A stretch of 35,826 nucleotides of DNA from a virus (lineage: Duplodnaviria; Caudoviricetes), in IMG/VR virus record IMGVR_UViG_3300012157_000005, positions 1-35,826 of that record; one strand, 5' to 3'. Shown piece after piece: positions 7,830 through 33,389 of the stretch. The position numbers and the translations under genes are program-made. The notes under the pieces are model-generated. The model searched no databases and was not told the DNA's origin. It saw only the letters and a list, made by a program, of their open reading frames with translations. Every line of letters starts with the position of its first letter. Position 1 is the stretch's first letter.

Positions 7830-9748
7830 ACTGGTTGTGTTGTTCCTGATTGATTTGTTTGTTGACCTTGAGCAGATTGAACTTGTGGCATAAATTGTTC
7901 AAGTCCACGAACACCACCAACACTTAAGAGATAAAGAAACATCTTTGGAAGCATTTGGCCCATTGTTTGTTGCAAAACTTGTGAAGATGAAAGAAGTTGA
8001 ATTCCACCCATAAGAACCTCTGTTGAAGCAATCTTATCAGCAGGAAGAAGTCCATCAGCCAATTTGAAATTGTTTACAATCTTACGCATATCTTCAAGTT
8101 TCTTAGTAGTAATCTCATAAACTTCACCAGAACTCATATTTTGATAACTTCCAGATACTCCATATTGATAAATATTTAGCTTAATTTGTTCTTTGATTGG
8201 TAACATTTGCTGATATTCAAGCATAAGAGCACAATTTCTCATACGACCATAAGAGCCAGCCATTGTATCATCCCATTCTTGTCTTGATTTATTACCTTTT
8301 TGAAATTGACCACGTTGAGGTTTATTTACACCATTTAGATCATCAGCCATTTCAGACATTGCACGCATATCTTGAACAACTGTCTCAGTTCCCCTTGAAT
8401 CAAATGGAATTGATTTATAAAGATCATCAATCTTCTTACCACCAAGCAGAGCATTAGCCTTATAGGGAATTTTGGCCGCTGGATAGGGGGAATTAACATC
8501 ATTGGGATTTAATGCAGTAGAGTCATATATAGCACGGTCAACGACGGCTCTACGAGCTGCATTTAAACGAATTGAAAAAAGCTTTGAATTTGCTTCTTGG
8601 AATGGAATTGCATTTTCAGCAGTTGTCATTGTTTGATATGAGAAGCCATCTTCCAAAGGTTGCCCAATGAAAACAGGAAGCATATCGTAAATCGTGAAAA
8701 TCCTTTTTGCATACACAAGTTTTTCATGATTTACGAAACAAAGTTTCCAAACTTGAGGAGTTCCTTTTTTAGGAACATTTACCATTTTATGTTCTTCTGG
8801 AATAATACGAGCATAAAGAGTTACATACTCATAAACATCAGACATACGAGATGCACGATCAATACCACTTTTTTGTTTTTGTTCAGTAAGATATGCCATC
8901 CAATCCATCATTTGACCATTGCGTAGAGCTTTGTTATTTATAAGCTTTGATATCTGTGGCTTTTCTGTATAGTAACCAAAAATATCAGTAGTAGGAGTAG
9001 ATGTAGCACTAAGCTGTGATCCCATTGCTTGTGATGTATGATATCCATTACCAGAAGATTCATGATAAGCAAGTTTACGTTTTAATTCGATACGGGAGAT
9101 AATTTCTATATGGCCAGTATACTCACCACAGTAAGGAATATCAACAGGATTAACTCGACCATCTATAATAGTATTATAAGGATCCCATGCACGTAATTTA
9201 TTAATATTGTATTGAGTTGTTTCAACTTTATTCTTTGTTGGTTCAAGATAATTTGATGTAAAGTTATAAAGATCAAGAGATGACCAGTCTACTTCAATTG
9301 CTGAAAAATTATATTTGACTGCATCCTTAAAAGATAAAGCAAGTTGACGCTGATAGCGACCACGTGTTGCATGGTCATCAATAATTGCTTGGAGTTGTTC
9401 ACCTTCTAATATTGTATTGGGTGTAGAAATTACAGGAAATATTGGATAACCTGATAGATAAATATCATTAAGGTAGGAGACATAAGAATCAACTTGTGAA
9501 ACAACAATTGGAACAGTTATTTCATCAATATTGATACCACAGGCAACTTGACCAGCAGAAGAATCATCAACACCATCTGTTCCTGTTTCTTGTGCTGCTT
9601 TGTAGCGAGCATACGCAATATCTATAAACTCCATCTTATCACGTAATTCTTGTTGCTTTTGATGGATATCAAGTATCACACCGCAATACTTGACTAAAGA
9701 TGCTTGCGCGTCTGCTGTAAGTCGGCCTACTTGTGGAGCTTGGGCCAT
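7826..9748 (-). CDS. Portal protein
   Basis: 640 aa directly after TerL; size, position and Q-rich C-terminus fit a podovirus portal. Confidence 0.8.
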   Translation of the reverse strand: MAQAPQVGRLTADAQASLVKYCGVILDIHQKQQELRDKMEFIDIAYARYKAAQETGTDGVDDSSAGQVACGINIDEITVPIVVSQVDSYVSYLNDIYLSGYPIFPVISTPNTILEGEQLQAIIDDHATRGRYQRQLALSFKDAVKYNFSAIEVDWSSLDLYNFTSNYLEPTKNKVETTQYNINKLRAWDPYNTIIDGRVNPVDIPYCGEYTGHIEIISRIELKRKLAYHESSGNGYHTSQAMGSQLSATSTPTTDIFGYYTEKPQISKLINNKALRNGQMMDWMAYLTEQKQKSGIDRASRMSDVYEYVTLYARIIPEEHKMVNVPKKGTPQVWKLCFVNHEKLVYAKRIFTIYDMLPVFIGQPLEDGFSYQTMTTAENAIPFQEANSKLFSIRLNAARRAVVDRAIYDSTALNPNDVNSPYPAAKIPYKANALLGGKKIDDLYKSIPFDSRGTETVVQDMRAMSEMADDLNGVNKPQRGQFQKGNKSRQEWDDTMAGSYGRMRNCALMLEYQQMLPIKEQIKLNIYQYGVSGSYQNMSSGEVYEITTKKLEDMRKIVNNFKLADGLLPADKIASTEVLMGGIQLLSSSQVLQQTMGQMLPKMFLYLLSVGGVRGLEQFMPQVQSAQGQQTNQSGTTQPV

Positions 9749-12190: not shown

Positions 12191-12214
12191 AAAAAAAAGC
12201 CACCCGGAGGTGGC
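12191..12214 (-). terminator. Rho-independent terminator of the leftward early unit
   Basis: Minus strand GCCACC-TCCG-GGTGGC followed by T8. Confidence 0.85.
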
Positions 12215-12248
12215 CTTAAGTCTTTGATTGCTTTGCCTTGTCTGATTC

Positions 12249-12527
12249 TTACTTTGTGAAATCCAAGCTTGCCTTGAATGATTGGTGACATGGCCGCCGG
12301 TAGCGATACCCTTGCACCTTAGCAATCTGGGTTAGCCTGATTGCTGTGCGTATGCTCATGCCACAGCTTGCCATCATCTTGCCAGCCATGTAATGACCAT
12401 ATCTTAGGACAGCTACGATTGCACCAGCAAACAACGGCCCATGCCTTGTTGATCGCATTACCTCTTGACCTTGCTTAGTGTTGCTCAGGTTGTAAAACTT
12501 GTTTCTTGTTACGCTTGCATCGCACAT
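12249..12527 (-). CDS. Small basic hypothetical early protein
   Basis: 92 aa; AAAGGAAA SD upstream of ATG; ends just before the terminator. Confidence 0.6.
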   Translation of the reverse strand: MCDASVTRNKFYNLSNTKQGQEVMRSTRHGPLFAGAIVAVLRYGHYMAGKMMASCGMSIRTAIRLTQIAKVQGYRYRRPCHQSFKASLDFTK

Positions 12528-12580
12528 TGAAATTTCCTTTCAGAGTTTGCCCATCATTGAGAACCTACTTTTGATTCAAA

Positions 12581-12626
12581 CAGCGCACTAAGCTTGTGAC
12601 CTAATGCGCTGCAAGTATCAACTTGC
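12581..12626 (-). promoter_or_regulatory. Tandem hairpins after the 231-aa gene (possible attenuator or processing site)
   Basis: RNA GCAAGU-UGAU-ACUUGC, then CAGCGCAUUAGG-UCACAAG-CUUAGUGCGCUG followed by UUUG. Confidence 0.45.
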
Positions 12627-12636
12627 CAATGTTGTG

Positions 12637-13332
12637 CTACGACAAGTCAAGTTCTTCAGACTCCACCGCTGCGTTAAGCGATTCGTTCAGTTCCGCAAGC
12701 TTCGGGGCAAACCGTGCTTGTTTCTCTGCGGTAAGACCCTTGCCCCATTCCTCGCAATGCATCCCCAGTGCTTCAACATACTTCGGGGATGCACTTCCCA
12801 ACACGCGAGCACTGTTATAGAAAAGCTCGCCAAGCGCAGCAATAACGTTTGCTTTCTTGTTTTTCCCTTGAAGGAAAGCTTCAAAATCCGCTTTTGCTTC
12901 CCTGCGAATCTTGAGTGCTTCGCCGCTACGGGCGCTTTCTGCTGTCAGGGTTTCAAAGTCAACGGGCAACTGCTTGCCGGCATCAGGACTGAGAACAGCT
13001 TGTAAATCTTCCTTTGCTGGCTTTGCCTTGATTGTGCCGCTGAAATAATTCCTGACCTTTGCAGCCACGCTTGCAGCGATTGCTTGTTGCAGGTAGTCGT
13101 GCTTGTCGTCAGCATAGACAGGGATACCGTCGTCTTTTCCTACCATCAGTTCCCCCGTTTTCTCATCCTTCGCTTGGACTGCCGTGATTCCGAAATCCGC
13201 AAGTGAAGGATACGGAACCATTGCGTAACCGACAACGATACGTTCTTTTTCCGGCTTGCCCTTTTTGTCGAGCTTGCCAGTCGGGACTGTCTTGCTCAAT
13301 TCCAATCGCATTTTGTTTGCAAATGCACTCAT
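12637..13332 (-). CDS. Hypothetical early protein, GC-rich gene with acidic C-terminus
   Basis: 231 aa; GGAG SD; first gene after the leftward sigma70 promoter; ends ESEELDLS. Confidence 0.85.
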   Translation of the reverse strand: MSAFANKMRLELSKTVPTGKLDKKGKPEKERIVVGYAMVPYPSLADFGITAVQAKDEKTGELMVGKDDGIPVYADDKHDYLQQAIAASVAAKVRNYFSGTIKAKPAKEDLQAVLSPDAGKQLPVDFETLTAESARSGEALKIRREAKADFEAFLQGKNKKANVIAALGELFYNSARVLGSASPKYVEALGMHCEEWGKGLTAEKQARFAPKLAELNESLNAAVESEELDLS

Positions 13333-13353
13333 GGTAATTTACTCCAAGTGATC

Positions 13354-13503
13354 GAACACAATTTTATGGGCCTGTGTTCTTTGCCCACGTTTTCGTGGAA
13401 ATGGACGTACCATCGTCCCTGCATGTTGCTAGCTGTCTCTTGCACTGCAGTCTGTCCTAAGACCCTGCTTGTATGCAATGTGATGACTATCCACCACGAA
13501 AAC
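13354..13503 (-). ncRNA. Candidate structured 5' leader RNA (multibranch domain plus H-type pseudoknot)
   Basis: GUUUUCGUGG (13503-13494) pairs with CCACGAAAAC (13398-13389); internal stems; pseudoknot GUGGGC-AAA-GAACACA-G-GCCCAU-AAAAU-UGUGUUC (13388-13354). Confidence 0.6.
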
Positions 13504-13509
13504 ATAATC

Positions 13510-13547
13510 ACTATACTTACTTGCATCGAGAGAGTCAAATTTATTTT
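13510..13547 (-). promoter_or_regulatory. Leftward sigma70-type promoter with UP-like element
   Basis: TTGACT (13538-13533), 17-nt spacer, TATAGT (13515-13510), preceded by AAAATAAAT; predicted +1 G at 13503. Confidence 0.8.
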
Positions 13548-13625: not shown

Positions 13626-13914
13626 CCGGGACTGCGGAATTTTGACCCCTTACCCTCTATCCGCCAAGTGACCATCCCCCGATCTAGGCAGATATATATA
13701 CATATGCAGATATATATATATCCCTTATACTATATATCTTGCCAGACTAGGTTATTGACTCTCTCTTTCTTAAAATTGATATACCCTTATAAAACCATGA
13801 GTGGAGATAGTATCAGGCAGATGCATAGATGAGAACCTAACTATAGATATCAGGTTAAGGGGCAGAGGTCACTTCGGGGGATGAGGGCATACCCCAAAAA
13901 TTCCGCAGTTCCGG
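13626..13914. repeat. Imperfect inverted repeat flanking an AT-rich core (origin-like)
   Basis: CCGGGACTGCGGAATTTT (13626-13643) vs AAAATTCCGCAGTTCCGG (13897-13914), 17/18 match; AAGTGACC (13666-13673) vs GGTCACTT (13867-13874); both centred on 13770; GCAGATATATATA repeats inside. Confidence 0.75.
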
Positions 13915-13955: not shown

Positions 13956-13994
13956 AAAATAAATTTGACTTCCGCCCCGTTTTTCCGGTAAAAT
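13956..13994 (+). promoter_or_regulatory. Rightward sigma70-type promoter with UP-like element
   Basis: AAAATAAAT, TTGACT (13965-13970), 18-nt spacer, TAAAAT (13989-13994); first 15 nt identical to the leftward promoter. Confidence 0.7.
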
Positions 13995-30527: not shown

Positions 30528-31003
30528 ACATTCTTTCCCTACCAATCCTCAAGCTAATTGCTCGTGGCCGGCCTTGTAAACAGATTCTCTTCAACAACAC
30601 TCCCTATCTTGAACGCTTTTATCTTTTTCGTATATTTGGTTATACTTACTACTTGCATCGTATACTTTTTGCAGATGCAGATCGTGATCTTCATAATTAT
30701 CCTTGGCAATCTGCTTATTCTCTTATCCTTAATGGTTCTTACATTGAACGTCGTCTTGAATTTGGTTTTCAAAAACGCAAGATTGAATATATATCACCTG
30801 AAGTTATCAATATTATTCGTGGCTACTATTTCTACAAAAATATTGATCGTTTTAATCACTTTGGTGAGTATTCTTGGCATACAATTATGGAGATCAATGA
30901 ACCAGAAACTTGGCTTTTGTTTTGGCATTCTACCCCATTTAGAGAATGGGGCTTTTTAAGAGCAACAGGTTTTCAAAAAGCAAAGGAGAAAGTGTGGGAT
31001 TAG
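30524..31003 (+). CDS. Cupin-fold (cysteine dioxygenase/RmlC-like) protein
   Basis: PYLER, YLH...D.DRDLHNYPW, SLILNGSYIE, WHTI, TWLLF and REWGF, typical of a phage cupin family. Confidence 0.65.
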   Translation: MNILSLPILKLIARGRPCKQILFNNTPYLERFYLFRIFGYTYYLHRILFADADRDLHNYPWQSAYSLILNGSYIERRLEFGFQKRKIEYISPEVINIIRGYYFYKNIDRFNHFGEYSWHTIMEINEPETWLLFWHSTPFREWGFLRATGFQKAKEKVWD

Positions 31004-31809
31004 GTGATGAAATAATGGTAACAGCTCTTGTCAAAAAGAATAGAAGAGAAAATCCTATTCCTCACGTTATTGTTAACTCAAAAGGCTTAATGCGTTGGAG
31101 TGTTGCTTGGGAAAATAATCCATACATTTTAAACAAAAAAGAGCTACTTGGACATAGGCCAAATTTTGATAAAAACTATTATACATTATCTTCTGGAAAT
31201 GGTGGAGGCCGTCACTACATTGATTATGAAAAATCCAAACATCATCAATTCTATGTATGGAAAGAATGGGATATAGAACCTGGTGAAATTTTTCTTTCAG
31301 AAAAAGAGTACGAACTTGCAAAGAATTTTCAAAAAGGTTATGGTAATCCAATTATTCTCATTGAACCAACAATTAAAGGACATCTTCAAGAAAATAAGAA
31401 TTGGGGAAAGCATAATTGGCAACATTTAACAAAACAATTAGATAAAAATAACATACGCACAATTCAATTAAATCATTTTTATTCAAAACTAAACTTAACT
31501 AGTAATATACATACAGTTCATTCAATTCGTGAAATATTTGCTTATATCTCTGTAGCAGATATGATTATCTCACATGAAGGTGGCTTTCATCATGCTGCTG
31601 CTGCATTAGGAACTCCTGGAATTGTTATATTTGGAGGGTATATAGATCCAAAAATTACAGGATACCCAATTCATACAAATCTTACAGGCACAAAAGTATT
31701 TTGTGGCAATCTTATTCCATGTTCACATTGTCGTAAGGCAATGAATTCAATTACACCCGAGAAAGTTGTTTATGAAACCTTAAAGATTTTGGAGAAGAAA
31801 TATGGATAG
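30994..31809 (+). CDS. Glycosyltransferase, GT9 (heptosyltransferase)-like GT-B fold
   Basis: GTG 30994 with AAGGAG SD; GLGDEIM, NNPYI, EGGFHHAAAALGTPGIVIFGG and C-terminal CxxxxxCxxC..AMNSITPEKV. Confidence 0.85.
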   Translation: MGLGDEIMVTALVKKNRRENPIPHVIVNSKGLMRWSVAWENNPYILNKKELLGHRPNFDKNYYTLSSGNGGGRHYIDYEKSKHHQFYVWKEWDIEPGEIFLSEKEYELAKNFQKGYGNPIILIEPTIKGHLQENKNWGKHNWQHLTKQLDKNNIRTIQLNHFYSKLNLTSNIHTVHSIREIFAYISVADMIISHEGGFHHAAAALGTPGIVIFGGYIDPKITGYPIHTNLTGTKVFCGNLIPCSHCRKAMNSITPEKVVYETLKILEKKYG

Positions 31810-32548
31810 ACAAATTAGCCTGCTCATTCCATCAAGAGGTCGGCCAGAACGCCTCATTGAAATGATGGCATCTGCTTGGGGAACATCTGATAAAACACTT
31901 GAACCTTTACAGTTCTGTGTTGGTTTAGATGAAGATGATCCTGCATATTCTACTTATATAAAAACCTTAGAAGAAGCTGATCTTACTCTTAATATTGCGT
32001 ATCATATATCAACAAAGCAGATGTCAGCTCCTGAGCATCTTAATAGAATGGCAACAACAATTGCTTCAGGTGATCTTATGTTTGCACTAGGAGATGATGT
32101 TATCTTTAGAACAATAGGATGGAATACAGAAATCAATCTTCTTTGGGATAAAGTTCCAGATAATATCTTAGTTGCTTATTGCAATAATGGAATGAATCGT
32201 GAGAAATGTGAGCATTTTATCTTGCACAGTGATTGGATACACCTTTTAGGTAATATTTGTCCTCCTTACTTTCGTCACTTTTGTGTTGATGCTTGGGTTG
32301 AGGATATTGCAAAACGAATTAATAGACTTTCATGGCTTAAATATGTTACAGTTGAACACATGCATTTCAAATATGGTAAAGCAAAAACTGATGAAACATA
32401 TCAAGCAGTTCGTTATCCAATAGGTAATTCTTCAGTCTCACAATTTGATACTGAAATGTATAATAAAACAGACATCGAAAGAATTAAGATTGCAAATAAA
32501 TTACGAGCATACATTGAGTCAAAATCAACAACTTCAGCAAGAACCTAA
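31802..32548 (+). CDS. Glycosyltransferase, GT2-like GT-A fold
   Basis: ISLLIPSRGRP, LDEDDP, GDLMFALGDD (DxD-like) and FCVDAW motifs. Confidence 0.8.
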   Translation: MDRQISLLIPSRGRPERLIEMMASAWGTSDKTLEPLQFCVGLDEDDPAYSTYIKTLEEADLTLNIAYHISTKQMSAPEHLNRMATTIASGDLMFALGDDVIFRTIGWNTEINLLWDKVPDNILVAYCNNGMNREKCEHFILHSDWIHLLGNICPPYFRHFCVDAWVEDIAKRINRLSWLKYVTVEHMHFKYGKAKTDETYQAVRYPIGNSSVSQFDTEMYNKTDIERIKIANKLRAYIESKSTTSART

Positions 32549-33389
32549 ATTTTTACAATATTATGTCCGTGAAAAATTTGCATCAATTTCTCTTCAAATC
32601 TTCAAAGGCTTTGATATTAAGAATCATGGAGCTTGGGTTCCTGCATCAAGAGGACAAATTTACTTTGGGCAAGGATATACACATATTGTTACAGGACTTC
32701 AATATGGATCACTTAGGGTTTTTCAACAGATCTACAATATCCAACATGCAAGACGTGAACCCTATCTTTTTATTGATGCTGGCTATTTGCTTGCTAAGCC
32801 TCATCTTACAGATATTGATACTTGGCGACTTAGAATCGTTCCTAATGCTTATCAAATGAATTGGATTTCAAAGAATCAAGATGACTCGAAACTGATTGCA
32901 TTATGTGTTAAGGGACTTCAAGTATATGATGGCTGGAGAGAAACAAATTCTAAGAAATATATCTTACTTATTCCTCCATCATCTGATGCAGTCTCACAAG
33001 TTTTCGGTTTATCAAACTGGGAAACTCAAGTTCTTATAAAATTAAAAGAGCACACAAAACGAGAAATCATTATAAGAAGAAAAGGAAATGAAGTTCCTCT
33101 TATGGCTCATTTGTCTGGTGCTCATGCAGTTGTTGCTTATACTTCTAATGTTTCTACCGATGGGGCCGTCGCAGGTATTCCAGCATTTTGTTCACAATTT
33201 GCTGCGGCAGCTCCTATTTCATTGAGGCTTGAGAATTTAGATATGATTGAAAATCCGTGGAGACCATCTAGGGAAATTAGGGAAAATTGGCTTTTAAGTC
33301 TTGCAAACAATCAATTCTTGCTAAAAGAGATTGTAGAGGGAAAAGCAAGAGAGATTGTGATGAAAGAGATGTATGGAATTTACTCCTAA
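32445..33389 (+). CDS. Putative GT-B glycosyltransferase (KpsC/KpsS-like C-terminal region)
   Basis: YLFIDAGY, ILLIPPS, IIIRRK and AHAVVAYTSNVSTDGAVAGIPAF motifs; start uncertain (possibly TTG 32514). Confidence 0.65.
   Translation: MILKCIIKQTSKELRLQINYEHTLSQNQQLQQEPKFLQYYVREKFASISLQIFKGFDIKNHGAWVPASRGQIYFGQGYTHIVTGLQYGSLRVFQQIYNIQHARREPYLFIDAGYLLAKPHLTDIDTWRLRIVPNAYQMNWISKNQDDSKLIALCVKGLQVYDGWRETNSKKYILLIPPSSDAVSQVFGLSNWETQVLIKLKEHTKREIIIRRKGNEVPLMAHLSGAHAVVAYTSNVSTDGAVAGIPAFCSQFAAAAPISLRLENLDMIENPWRPSREIRENWLLSLANNQFLLKEIVEGKAREIVMKEMYGIYS

Follow-up and report, generated by a model that had tools for sequence, protein, structure and literature searches.

The question raised by this locus is what a long and structured RNA leader is doing in front of a phage gene, and whether it represents a new regulatory element. 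The window, by which is meant the whole analysed stretch of 35,826 nt (IMG/VR record IMGVR_UViG_3300012157_000005), covers most of a podophage genome, near-identical contigs of which reach 46–47 kb. An earlier note on this DNA had pointed to a multibranched domain, a pseudoknot and a competing hairpin in the leader, and when the sequence was re-read all of the helices it listed were found on the minus strand where it had placed them.

Genome setting and the gp1 gene

The minus strand of the window encodes both terminase subunits, the portal and the major capsid protein, and the plus strand a helicase, a Sak4-like protein, a polymerase and a primase. Three further plus-strand ORFs at 30946–33389 (287, 248 and 314 aa) resemble, on inspection by eye, genes for glycosyltransferases or DNA modification. 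The leader precedes a gene for a 231-aa protein that is assigned to the gp1 family of the Pseudomonas phages PaMx41, PaP2 and 119X by sequence homology and by its position beside the small terminase gene. The protein itself (P0001) matched no PHROG or Pfam family, phrog_15550 included; phmmer linked it to 84 representatives, phrog_15550 was matched by 78 of the 85 aligned family members, and one member (P0053) led to ORF1/gp1 of PaP2, 119X and PaMx41 (1e-16 for the last) and to a gene of Polaromonas phage Tiera. In PaMx41, PaP2 and 119X (Jamesmcgillvirus, Fredfastierviridae) the gene of this family occupies the same slot by the small terminase and has its own promoter and terminator, and it is found at the end of the genome in PaMx41. 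A preprint describes gp1 of PaMx41 as an early-stage gene whose function is not known (10.64898/2026.02.24.707611).

The gp1 gene and the 92-aa ORF downstream of it have GC-rich third codon positions (0.51–0.52, with gp1 at 0.51) compared with 0.18–0.36 in 12 other genes of the window, the GC content of the genome being 36%, and for gp1 this suggests an adaptation to host translation. A strong hairpin with a 12-bp arm lies between the two (12555–12610, minus strand) and came up as a control match in the pseudoknot scan. No relative of gp1 that could point to the host was found among the genome contigs searched.

The structure model of gp1 (pLDDT 94.5) combines a long beta-hairpin at the N terminus with a helix of 28 residues, which ends in the conserved motif RN[KR], and a bundle of helices at the C terminus. 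Family proteins are mildly acidic (median net charge −4), with conserved basic residues (R94, K159, RN[KR] in 61 of 85) and an acidic tail: the last ten residues carry a net charge of −2 or lower in 75 of 85 members, and 29 of 85 end in D/E-F. Acidic tails are typical of ssDNA-binding proteins, and that of gp1 hints at nucleic-acid binding, as a pointer. Searches of gp1 gave no Pfam, named PHROG or PDB sequence match; fold searches with two models gave nothing clear (Foldseek best E 0.02–0.14; VIA best Z 6.7–6.8, on the C-terminal helices only) and barely covered residues 1–135, and the ESM Atlas returned only unnamed viral clusters.

Promoter and leader

The promoter predicted for gp1 scores 10/12, with a −35 box TTGACT at 13538–13533 and a −10 box TATAGT at 13515–13510. 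The region holds seven sigma-70-like sites against 3.6 in shuffles, and in 37 of 40 relatives' leaders such a site lies 45–190 nt before the gp1 start. The whole leader has a folding z of −2.7. The stretch was present in 24 public runs, six of them recorded as RNA. Contigs of the RNA-library runs X19 (12942–13487) and X22 (12926–13445) span the pseudoknot and the gp1 start, as unstranded contigs that are not read as transcripts; none of the four RNA-library runs compared had a contig over 13488–14134, and in two the contigs break off at 12236, close to the terminator, neither of which is taken as evidence for a start or an end.

Upstream of the promoter, at 13680–13750, there is a region of inverted repeats rich in AT dinucleotides, and similar ATCTGCATATG motifs occur in relatives. 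It may mark a genome end or origin, since gp1 sits at the terminus in PaMx41 and Tiera. A divergent sigma-70-like promoter (13965–13994, plus strand) stands before a 439-aa ORF that has no PHROG match.

Table 1. Features of the gp1 leader and its surroundings, with positions in the window.
Feature	Positions	Strand	Remarks
Sigma-70-type promoter TTGACT-17-TATAGT	13510..13538	−	predicted +1 near 13503
Predicted untranslated gp1 leader	13333..13503	−	171 nt; +1 by prediction
5' domain	13389..13503	−	closed by 10-bp stem 13503–13494/13398–13389; nearest relatives only
Hairpin GUGGU/AUCAC, loop GGAUAGUC	13480..13497	−	overlaps closing stem
Variable inner arm (UUGCAU/GUGCAA, GCAG/CUGC, GUC-UUAG-GAC)	13440..13478	−	pairing probabilities 0.12–0.74
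Hairpin GGACG-AUGGUA-CGUCC	13403..13418	−	pairing probability 0.49
Alternative "switch" hairpin CCACG-AAAA-CGUGG	13385..13398	−	lineage-specific; pairing probability 0.01–0.19
H-type pseudoknot (predicted)	13354..13388	−	ends 8 nt before GGAG, 21 nt before AUG
Shine–Dalgarno (SD) GGAG	13342..13345	−	invariant in alignment A6
69-codon open frame over leader	13329..13538	−	stop overlaps gp1 AUG; likely not a gene
231-aa gene	12637..13332	−	PaMx41/PaP2/119X gp1 family (phrog_15550), early gene, no assigned function
92-aa ORF	12249..12527	−	downstream of gp1, likewise GC-rich third positions
Terminator-like hairpin with U-run	12196..12217	−	likely end of transcription unit

A predicted pseudoknot kept by shape among gp1 relatives

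The predicted pseudoknot is made up of S1 (GUGGGC/GCCCAU), L1 (AAA), S2 (GAACACAG/UUGUGUUC) and L3 (AAAA), without an L2, and one of equal quality arose in 2 of 1000 shuffles. Its assignment to the H-type class follows from prediction and covariation: the loop of stem 1 pairs with a 3' strand, L1 and L2 are short, and L3 is longer. When first described as a textbook case, it was given an L2 consisting of one G. Its place, S1 and L1 stand, but this G can form a G-U pair with the U that opens the 3' strand, which extends S2 to 8 bp; near-identical phages (L001 and L003) and contigs of two RNA-library runs have an A at that position (A-U), and S2 is for this reason better drawn as 8 bp without L2. 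No other pseudoknot of the window stands ahead of a genuine SD and start codon, and none before other genes is credible.

Scans of viral and metagenome sequences, together with two phage records, supplied the loci with gp1 relatives, which were used if upstream DNA was present and a profile confirmed family membership. One weak match (L025), loci truncated ahead of the start and loci that exactly repeated an earlier one were excluded, and the 59 leaders were collapsed to 40 by shared 8-mers. A finder for perfect H-type pseudoknots, run with 60 dinucleotide shuffles per leader and p ≤ 0.05, identified one that beat at least 95% of the shuffles in 21 of these 40 non-redundant leaders. Nineteen of the 40 score −19 or lower and end 17–25 nt before the ATG, whereas none of 119 other SD-bearing ORFs from the same loci do, nor any of the 29 control ORFs that have a promoter; such a score at other distances was seen in 8 of the 119. 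The corresponding Fisher values, 7e-14 for the 119 controls and 4e-6 for the 29, overstate independence because the leaders are related and the score and distance cut-offs were fixed after the first survey of the 40 leaders had been seen. Relaxed rules add three leaders (L051, L079 and L081) at 19–22 nt. Among five loci that were found later, one (L124) has a pseudoknot at the predicted place, 22 nt before the AUG; three of the others belong by N-terminal sequence to a clade without pseudoknots, and one more had none.

The canonical element is thus missing from 19 of the 40 leaders, and these include both cultured phages: Tiera has none, and the gp1 leader of PaMx41 differs in having only a weaker candidate (p = 0.08) that ends 14 nt before the AUG. 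On the protein tree the element occupies two large clades (12 of 14 and 9–11 of 15 rows) and is nearly missing from a third clade and from four basal rows, including PaMx41 and Tiera, which requires 6–7 gains or losses. It has been lost, for example, in L033, whose protein is 61% identical, and in L061, the sister of L060.

Where the pseudoknot occurs, the gp1 proteins span 33–100% identity. The 21 pseudoknots have no stem letters in common and their loops keep no letters; S1 is 4–7 bp (12 in one), L1 1–5 nt (11 in one), S2 5–10 bp and L2 0–2 nt, and L3 is often A-rich. A MAFFT alignment of L004, L008 and L028, a small covariation set of three sequences with the structure drawn from one of them (L008), has 96% of its cells paired and nine pairs changed on both sides, six of them in S2, compared with 30–45% pairing in slid controls. 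S2, which has eight pairs, is 100% paired in this sequence-driven alignment. Judged from these comparisons, the pseudoknot is likely to be real and conserved, kept by shape and position and not by letters. The proposal of a candidate new cis-regulatory leader element is in this respect supported, and more strongly than the earlier note could do, as the pseudoknot is kept by structure across the whole range of protein identity and has no Rfam match.

Other structures also recur in these leaders. In four leaders without the pseudoknot (L010, L033, L058 and L072) there are short hairpins with AUCA loops, and AUCA or AUUC is also seen in some L3 loops. In L113, L121, L130, L085 and L088, likewise without pseudoknots, the loop of a hairpin is able to pair with the SD or adjoining bases; 0–8 of 100 shuffles were as good for the first three, and the pairing is weak in the last two. 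These hairpins are possibly a repressive variant in the pseudoknot-less clade. A search before other genes gave one candidate in PaMx41 and none convincing in Tiera. The former is a perfect H-type pseudoknot (6 + 7 bp, score −27.3) on the plus strand at about 9657–9696 of the PaMx41 genome (L100), between the major capsid stop and ORF12 and ending 29 nt before an ATG; the record marks the region partly as a terminator.

Position at the ribosome site

The distance from the 3' end of the pseudoknot to the AUG is 17–33 nt across the 21 leaders (median 22, sd 3.3), whereas that from the predicted +1 to its 5' end varies between 1 and 126 nt (sd 41), and the pseudoknot therefore appears to be tied to the ribosome site and not to the 5' end. 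The SD begins 5–19 nt further on and is excluded from S2 in all 21 canonical cases. In E. coli, 30S footprints of the translating fraction are described as spanning −20 to +10 and −20 to −5 (bioRxiv 10.1101/2025.04.04.647229), so that an element ending about 21 nt before the AUG would stop where the 30S footprint begins. The start region itself (−20 to +20) has a median ensemble energy of −3.4 kcal/mol both with and without the pseudoknot (p = 0.84), and is more structured in the five nearest relatives (−5.4 to −13.0 kcal/mol).

The explanation we favour, at somewhat less than an even chance, is that the pseudoknot is a translation element recognised by shape alone, which docks the 30S subunit at the edge of its footprint, likely via ribosomal protein S1, and keeps the start site open. 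It is based on the shape-only conservation, the fixed spacing, the open ribosome site and the replacement by hairpins in sister lineages; the lack of conserved loop letters is what would be expected for a reader of shape. A host sigma-70-type promoter would start the gp1 message, the site being present and its use presumed. The pseudoknot, a structure indicated by covariation, would fold locally and lock the upstream RNA away from the SD region, and S1 would then hold the 30S subunit just upstream of −20, allowing fast and repeated initiation. This holding step draws on the tisB work (PMC7708055) together with the 30S-seq footprints. S1-binding pseudoknots are described there as differing in topology. 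A dependence on S1 is presumed because the hosts of the relatives are proteobacterial. Several observations weigh against such a translation element, namely the absence of a canonical pseudoknot from almost half of the leaders, the repeated changes on the tree, and the SD-pairing hairpins of pseudoknot-less leaders, which look like repression and not enhancement. Since its place is taken in sister lineages by a plain hairpin or by an open A-rich stretch, the pseudoknot is likely to be a tuner and not essential.

As gp1 is the only gene of the window with a pseudoknot before its SD, a gene-specific operator fits equally well. The gp1 protein might bind the pseudoknot shape in its own message, and in excess block or trap the adjoining 30S subunit, as gp32 does in T4 gene 32 and S15 in rpsO, a possibility that we regard as the main rival although rather unlikely. 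The element stays with one gene family over the full range of protein identity, the acidic tail and conserved basic residues of gp1 would suit a nucleic-acid-binding role, and a protein sitting on the pseudoknot would contact the −20 edge of the 30S footprint. The patchy spread is also compatible with autogenous control, as gene 32 of RB49 is described as lacking the T4 pseudoknot (PMC3014915, PMC535899). Against this, the loops offer no conserved bases for specific recognition, gp1 is net acidic, and the pseudoknot has been lost in L033 and L061. The T4 geometry is not reproduced either: the SD follows closely and the leaders hold 0–2 copies of UAAA, compared with the unstructured tract of more than 40 nt with UUAAA repeats reported for T4 (PMC535899).

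A further alternative is that the pseudoknot acts as a stabiliser of the mRNA, forming a compact barrier to 5'-end-dependent decay as near as possible to the ribosome site without a direct role in initiation. In 7 of the 21 leaders at most 8 nt separate its 5' end from the predicted +1, a processed RNA that began at the pseudoknot would retain the full ribosome site, and hairpins take its place in sister lineages. However, the five nearest relatives that have a separate 5'-terminal stem keep the pseudoknot 38–126 nt inside, and a hairpin would suffice as a barrier, yet both pseudoknot stems covary. We consider stabilisation alone to be improbable.

The leader could also be used in other ways, either by the pseudoknot or 5' domain being cut out to act in trans, or by the leader encoding a peptide. 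Type III toxin–antitoxin systems have pseudoknot antitoxins, and a decoy for such a system would be one example; the size and topology of the element presumably resemble those antitoxin units. The early promoter is strong, and an open frame runs over the leader into the gp1 start. But the element is present as a single copy, with no terminator between it and the gene and with no Rfam match, and the fixed distance between pseudoknot and AUG disfavours the processed small RNA that had been suggested. The 69-codon frame is likewise unlikely to be a gene: it has no PHROG match, its TTG start is part of the −35 box, and the frame is not conserved, being closed after 51 nt in L028 and giving unrelated peptides in L004 and L008. 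In three relatives an AUG within the conserved loop starts frames of 8, 53 and 14 codons; the window lacks this AUG. Taken together, an RNA acting in trans or a leader peptide seems extremely improbable.

The 5' domain and the alternative hairpin

The 10-bp stem proposed to close the 5' domain holds up well, with ten Watson–Crick pairs, a count reached by 4 of 300 leader shuffles, and a pairing probability of 0.94. Equivalent stems occur in L004, L008, L028 and L032, while the long domain is restricted to the window lineage, L004, L008 and L028 (4 of 40 leaders), L032 having a single stem. The helices listed inside it are present as complementarities, but the fold is partly different, and in the nested model of the full leader their probabilities are only 0.06–0.74 (GUC-UUAG-GAC 0.74, GGACG/CGUCC 0.49, GCAG/CUGC 0.27, UUGCAU/GUGCAA 0.12 and GUC/GAC 0.06). 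The inner arm is replaced by unrelated stems in L004, L008 and L028.

A hairpin that the earlier note did not list, GUGGU/AUCAC, is the first to fold in simulated elongation, is strengthened in L003 (GCCAC) and is supported by relatives too. Its loop is predicted in the relatives to pair with a downstream GGRAYC strand; the window version of this pairing is 3 bp only, GUC with GAC at 13437–13435, and is identical to the GUC/GAC helix listed before. Of the relatives' domain, the flanks GAU and AGC are retained in the window. In L004, L008 and L028 the closing stem, the loop-pairing hairpin, the variable arm and a covarying hairpin form a four-arm fold that keeps the unpaired letters UGAU, AGCG and GCUC, and as the loop–strand pairing is itself a pseudoknot, each of these leaders would have two. 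The pattern of the domain was found in viral contigs only at gp1 loci and in chance matches, and among 185,579 prokaryotic genomes it had 10 matches, all of which lack the hairpin context.

It had been proposed that the hairpin CCACG-AAAA-CGUGG makes the leader a riboswitch-like switch. The 5' domain would be the aptamer for a ligand or protein, stabilisation of GUGGU/RYCAC would free CCACG, and the switch hairpin would then break the pseudoknot. The helices concerned are indeed mutually exclusive in the window, and the unpaired letters and covarying four-arm fold of the three relatives, with its loop–strand pairing, are features that an aptamer could have. A rough estimate that assumes a pseudoknot penalty favours the pseudoknot state of the window over its best nested fold by 2.8 kcal/mol, and in L003 puts it 0.7 kcal/mol above the best nested fold, which there contains the switch hairpin, so that a local equilibrium is possible, but not as a family trait. 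The hairpin has a probability of 0.05 in the full leader, with a peak of 0.19 in simulated elongation, and it is missing from all four of the other long leaders, where the equivalent stretch folds to between 0 and −1.6 kcal/mol, compared with −6.8 in the window. In L008 and L028 the hairpin of the GUGGU/RYCAC type can coexist with the closing stem, and SD pairing changes little between the states. The domain belongs to few leaders, with three alignable sequences, and has no credible copy in the prokaryotic genomes and no Rfam match; most leaders with the pseudoknot have no upstream domain at all, and the loops of the pseudoknot are without conserved letters. A ligand- or protein-responsive switch is accordingly disfavoured, and we hold it to be very improbable. 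On the favoured explanation, the 5' domain of the nearest relatives would be a later addition that likely protects the 5' end.

A more far-reaching proposal can be made: that gp1, a conserved early protein in which no fold has been recognised, represents a novel type of nucleic-acid-binding protein and recognises, whatever its letters, the pseudoknot next to its own ribosome site, that this would be a second, independently evolved case of phage pseudoknot autoregulation beside T4 gene 32, and that in the window lineage the four-arm 5' domain, with its own loop–strand pseudoknot, gates it. We think this combination unlikely.

Comparison with known systems

The claim that the leader belongs to no known family agrees with a search of the Rfam 15 covariance models, in which nothing reached the gathering threshold for the window, 14 loci, L028 and L008 (best E 2.5). 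The TPP riboswitch (RF00059) was rejected for L028, at 11.5 bits of 54.3 required (E 8.9) and with UCACA for UGAGA; this and other weak Rfam rows (TPP, Termite-leu and snoRNA) were judged to be chance matches. Likenesses to hammerhead, pistol, twister-sister and fluoride RNAs were dropped by eye, having a different topology and no Rfam row. A blastn search of the leader against phage records gave a single 24-nt chance match. No description of the element was found among the literature listings and abstracts searched, and the readable supplements of a screen of IMG/VR viral RNAs with 10,006 candidates (PMC10690425) contain no match, although an automatic candidate there is possible. Nothing with a bearing on the leader was met in PMC9959647, in 10.1101/2022.03.30.486325 or in a study of pseudolysogeny of a Jamesmcgillvirus (PMC13348215). 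On the evidence of sequence, the element is uncatalogued and a new variant among leader pseudoknots, with a function that is only proposed.

Its wider interest is that only the shape of a pseudoknot, and its fixed spacing from the start codon, are preserved in a phage family, and RNA screens that cluster by sequence would tend to miss elements of this type. As over 20 natural variants exist whose letters are unrelated, a compensatory series is already at hand for asking whether such a structure beside the 30S subunit enhances, represses or only protects a message. The finding points toward a function for gp1, an unannotated core early gene, which is also carried by PaMx41, a cultured and genetically tractable model phage for CBASS.

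Small H-type pseudoknots near the SD are also found in the preQ1-I and SAM-II riboswitches. The gp1 pseudoknot differs from these in having no conserved ligand-binding letters, an S2 that does not include the SD, and no Rfam match. As regards the features of a riboswitch, no conserved unpaired ligand-binding nucleotides were found in the pseudoknot, the letters of the 5' domain are kept in three close relatives only, and there is no conserved expression platform, the switch hairpin occurring in one of five long leaders.

The nearest phage precedent is the gene 32 operator of T4, T2 and RB69, likewise an H-type pseudoknot with two coaxial stems that lies upstream of the SD of one gene and has a patchy distribution (PMC3014915, PMC535899). 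The analogy drawn in the earlier note stands for a pseudoknot upstream of the SD, but not for the defining geometry: the T4 pseudoknot is described as lying about 67 nt upstream and requiring a UUAAA-rich tract of more than 40 nt, while that of gp1 ends about 21 nt before the AUG and is followed by no such tract. Furthermore, gp32 is a proven ssDNA-binding repressor, to which gp1 is unrelated in sequence.

The 5' pseudoknot of the tisB mRNA is likewise of the H-type, in a bacterial-type leader, and is proposed to recruit S1 and the 30S subunit by shape, S1 needing the pseudoknot on this mRNA (PMC7708055). As described there, it acts 100 nt upstream of a sequestered ribosome-binding site, after processing and under antisense control, a geometry unlike that of gp1, whose pseudoknot abuts a mostly open site. 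A tisB-like arrangement with a distant, sequestered site is not seen in the family as a whole, given the 5–19 nt between pseudoknot and SD and the equal folding energies with and without the pseudoknot.

The rpsO leader of E. coli offers a third comparison, in which the pseudoknot lies where translation is initiated, docks onto the platform of the 30S subunit and can be both recognised by the ribosome and bound by its repressor, S15 (PMC3858243). It pairs into the coding sequence and is described as docked and then melted by S1 (PMC3858243, PMC7038950), whereas the gp1 pseudoknot stops before the SD; the best Rfam match to an S15 leader in the region was insignificant and lay elsewhere than the pseudoknot. 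With rpsO as an example, we consider that enhancement of translation and autorepression through the gp1 pseudoknot are not mutually exclusive.
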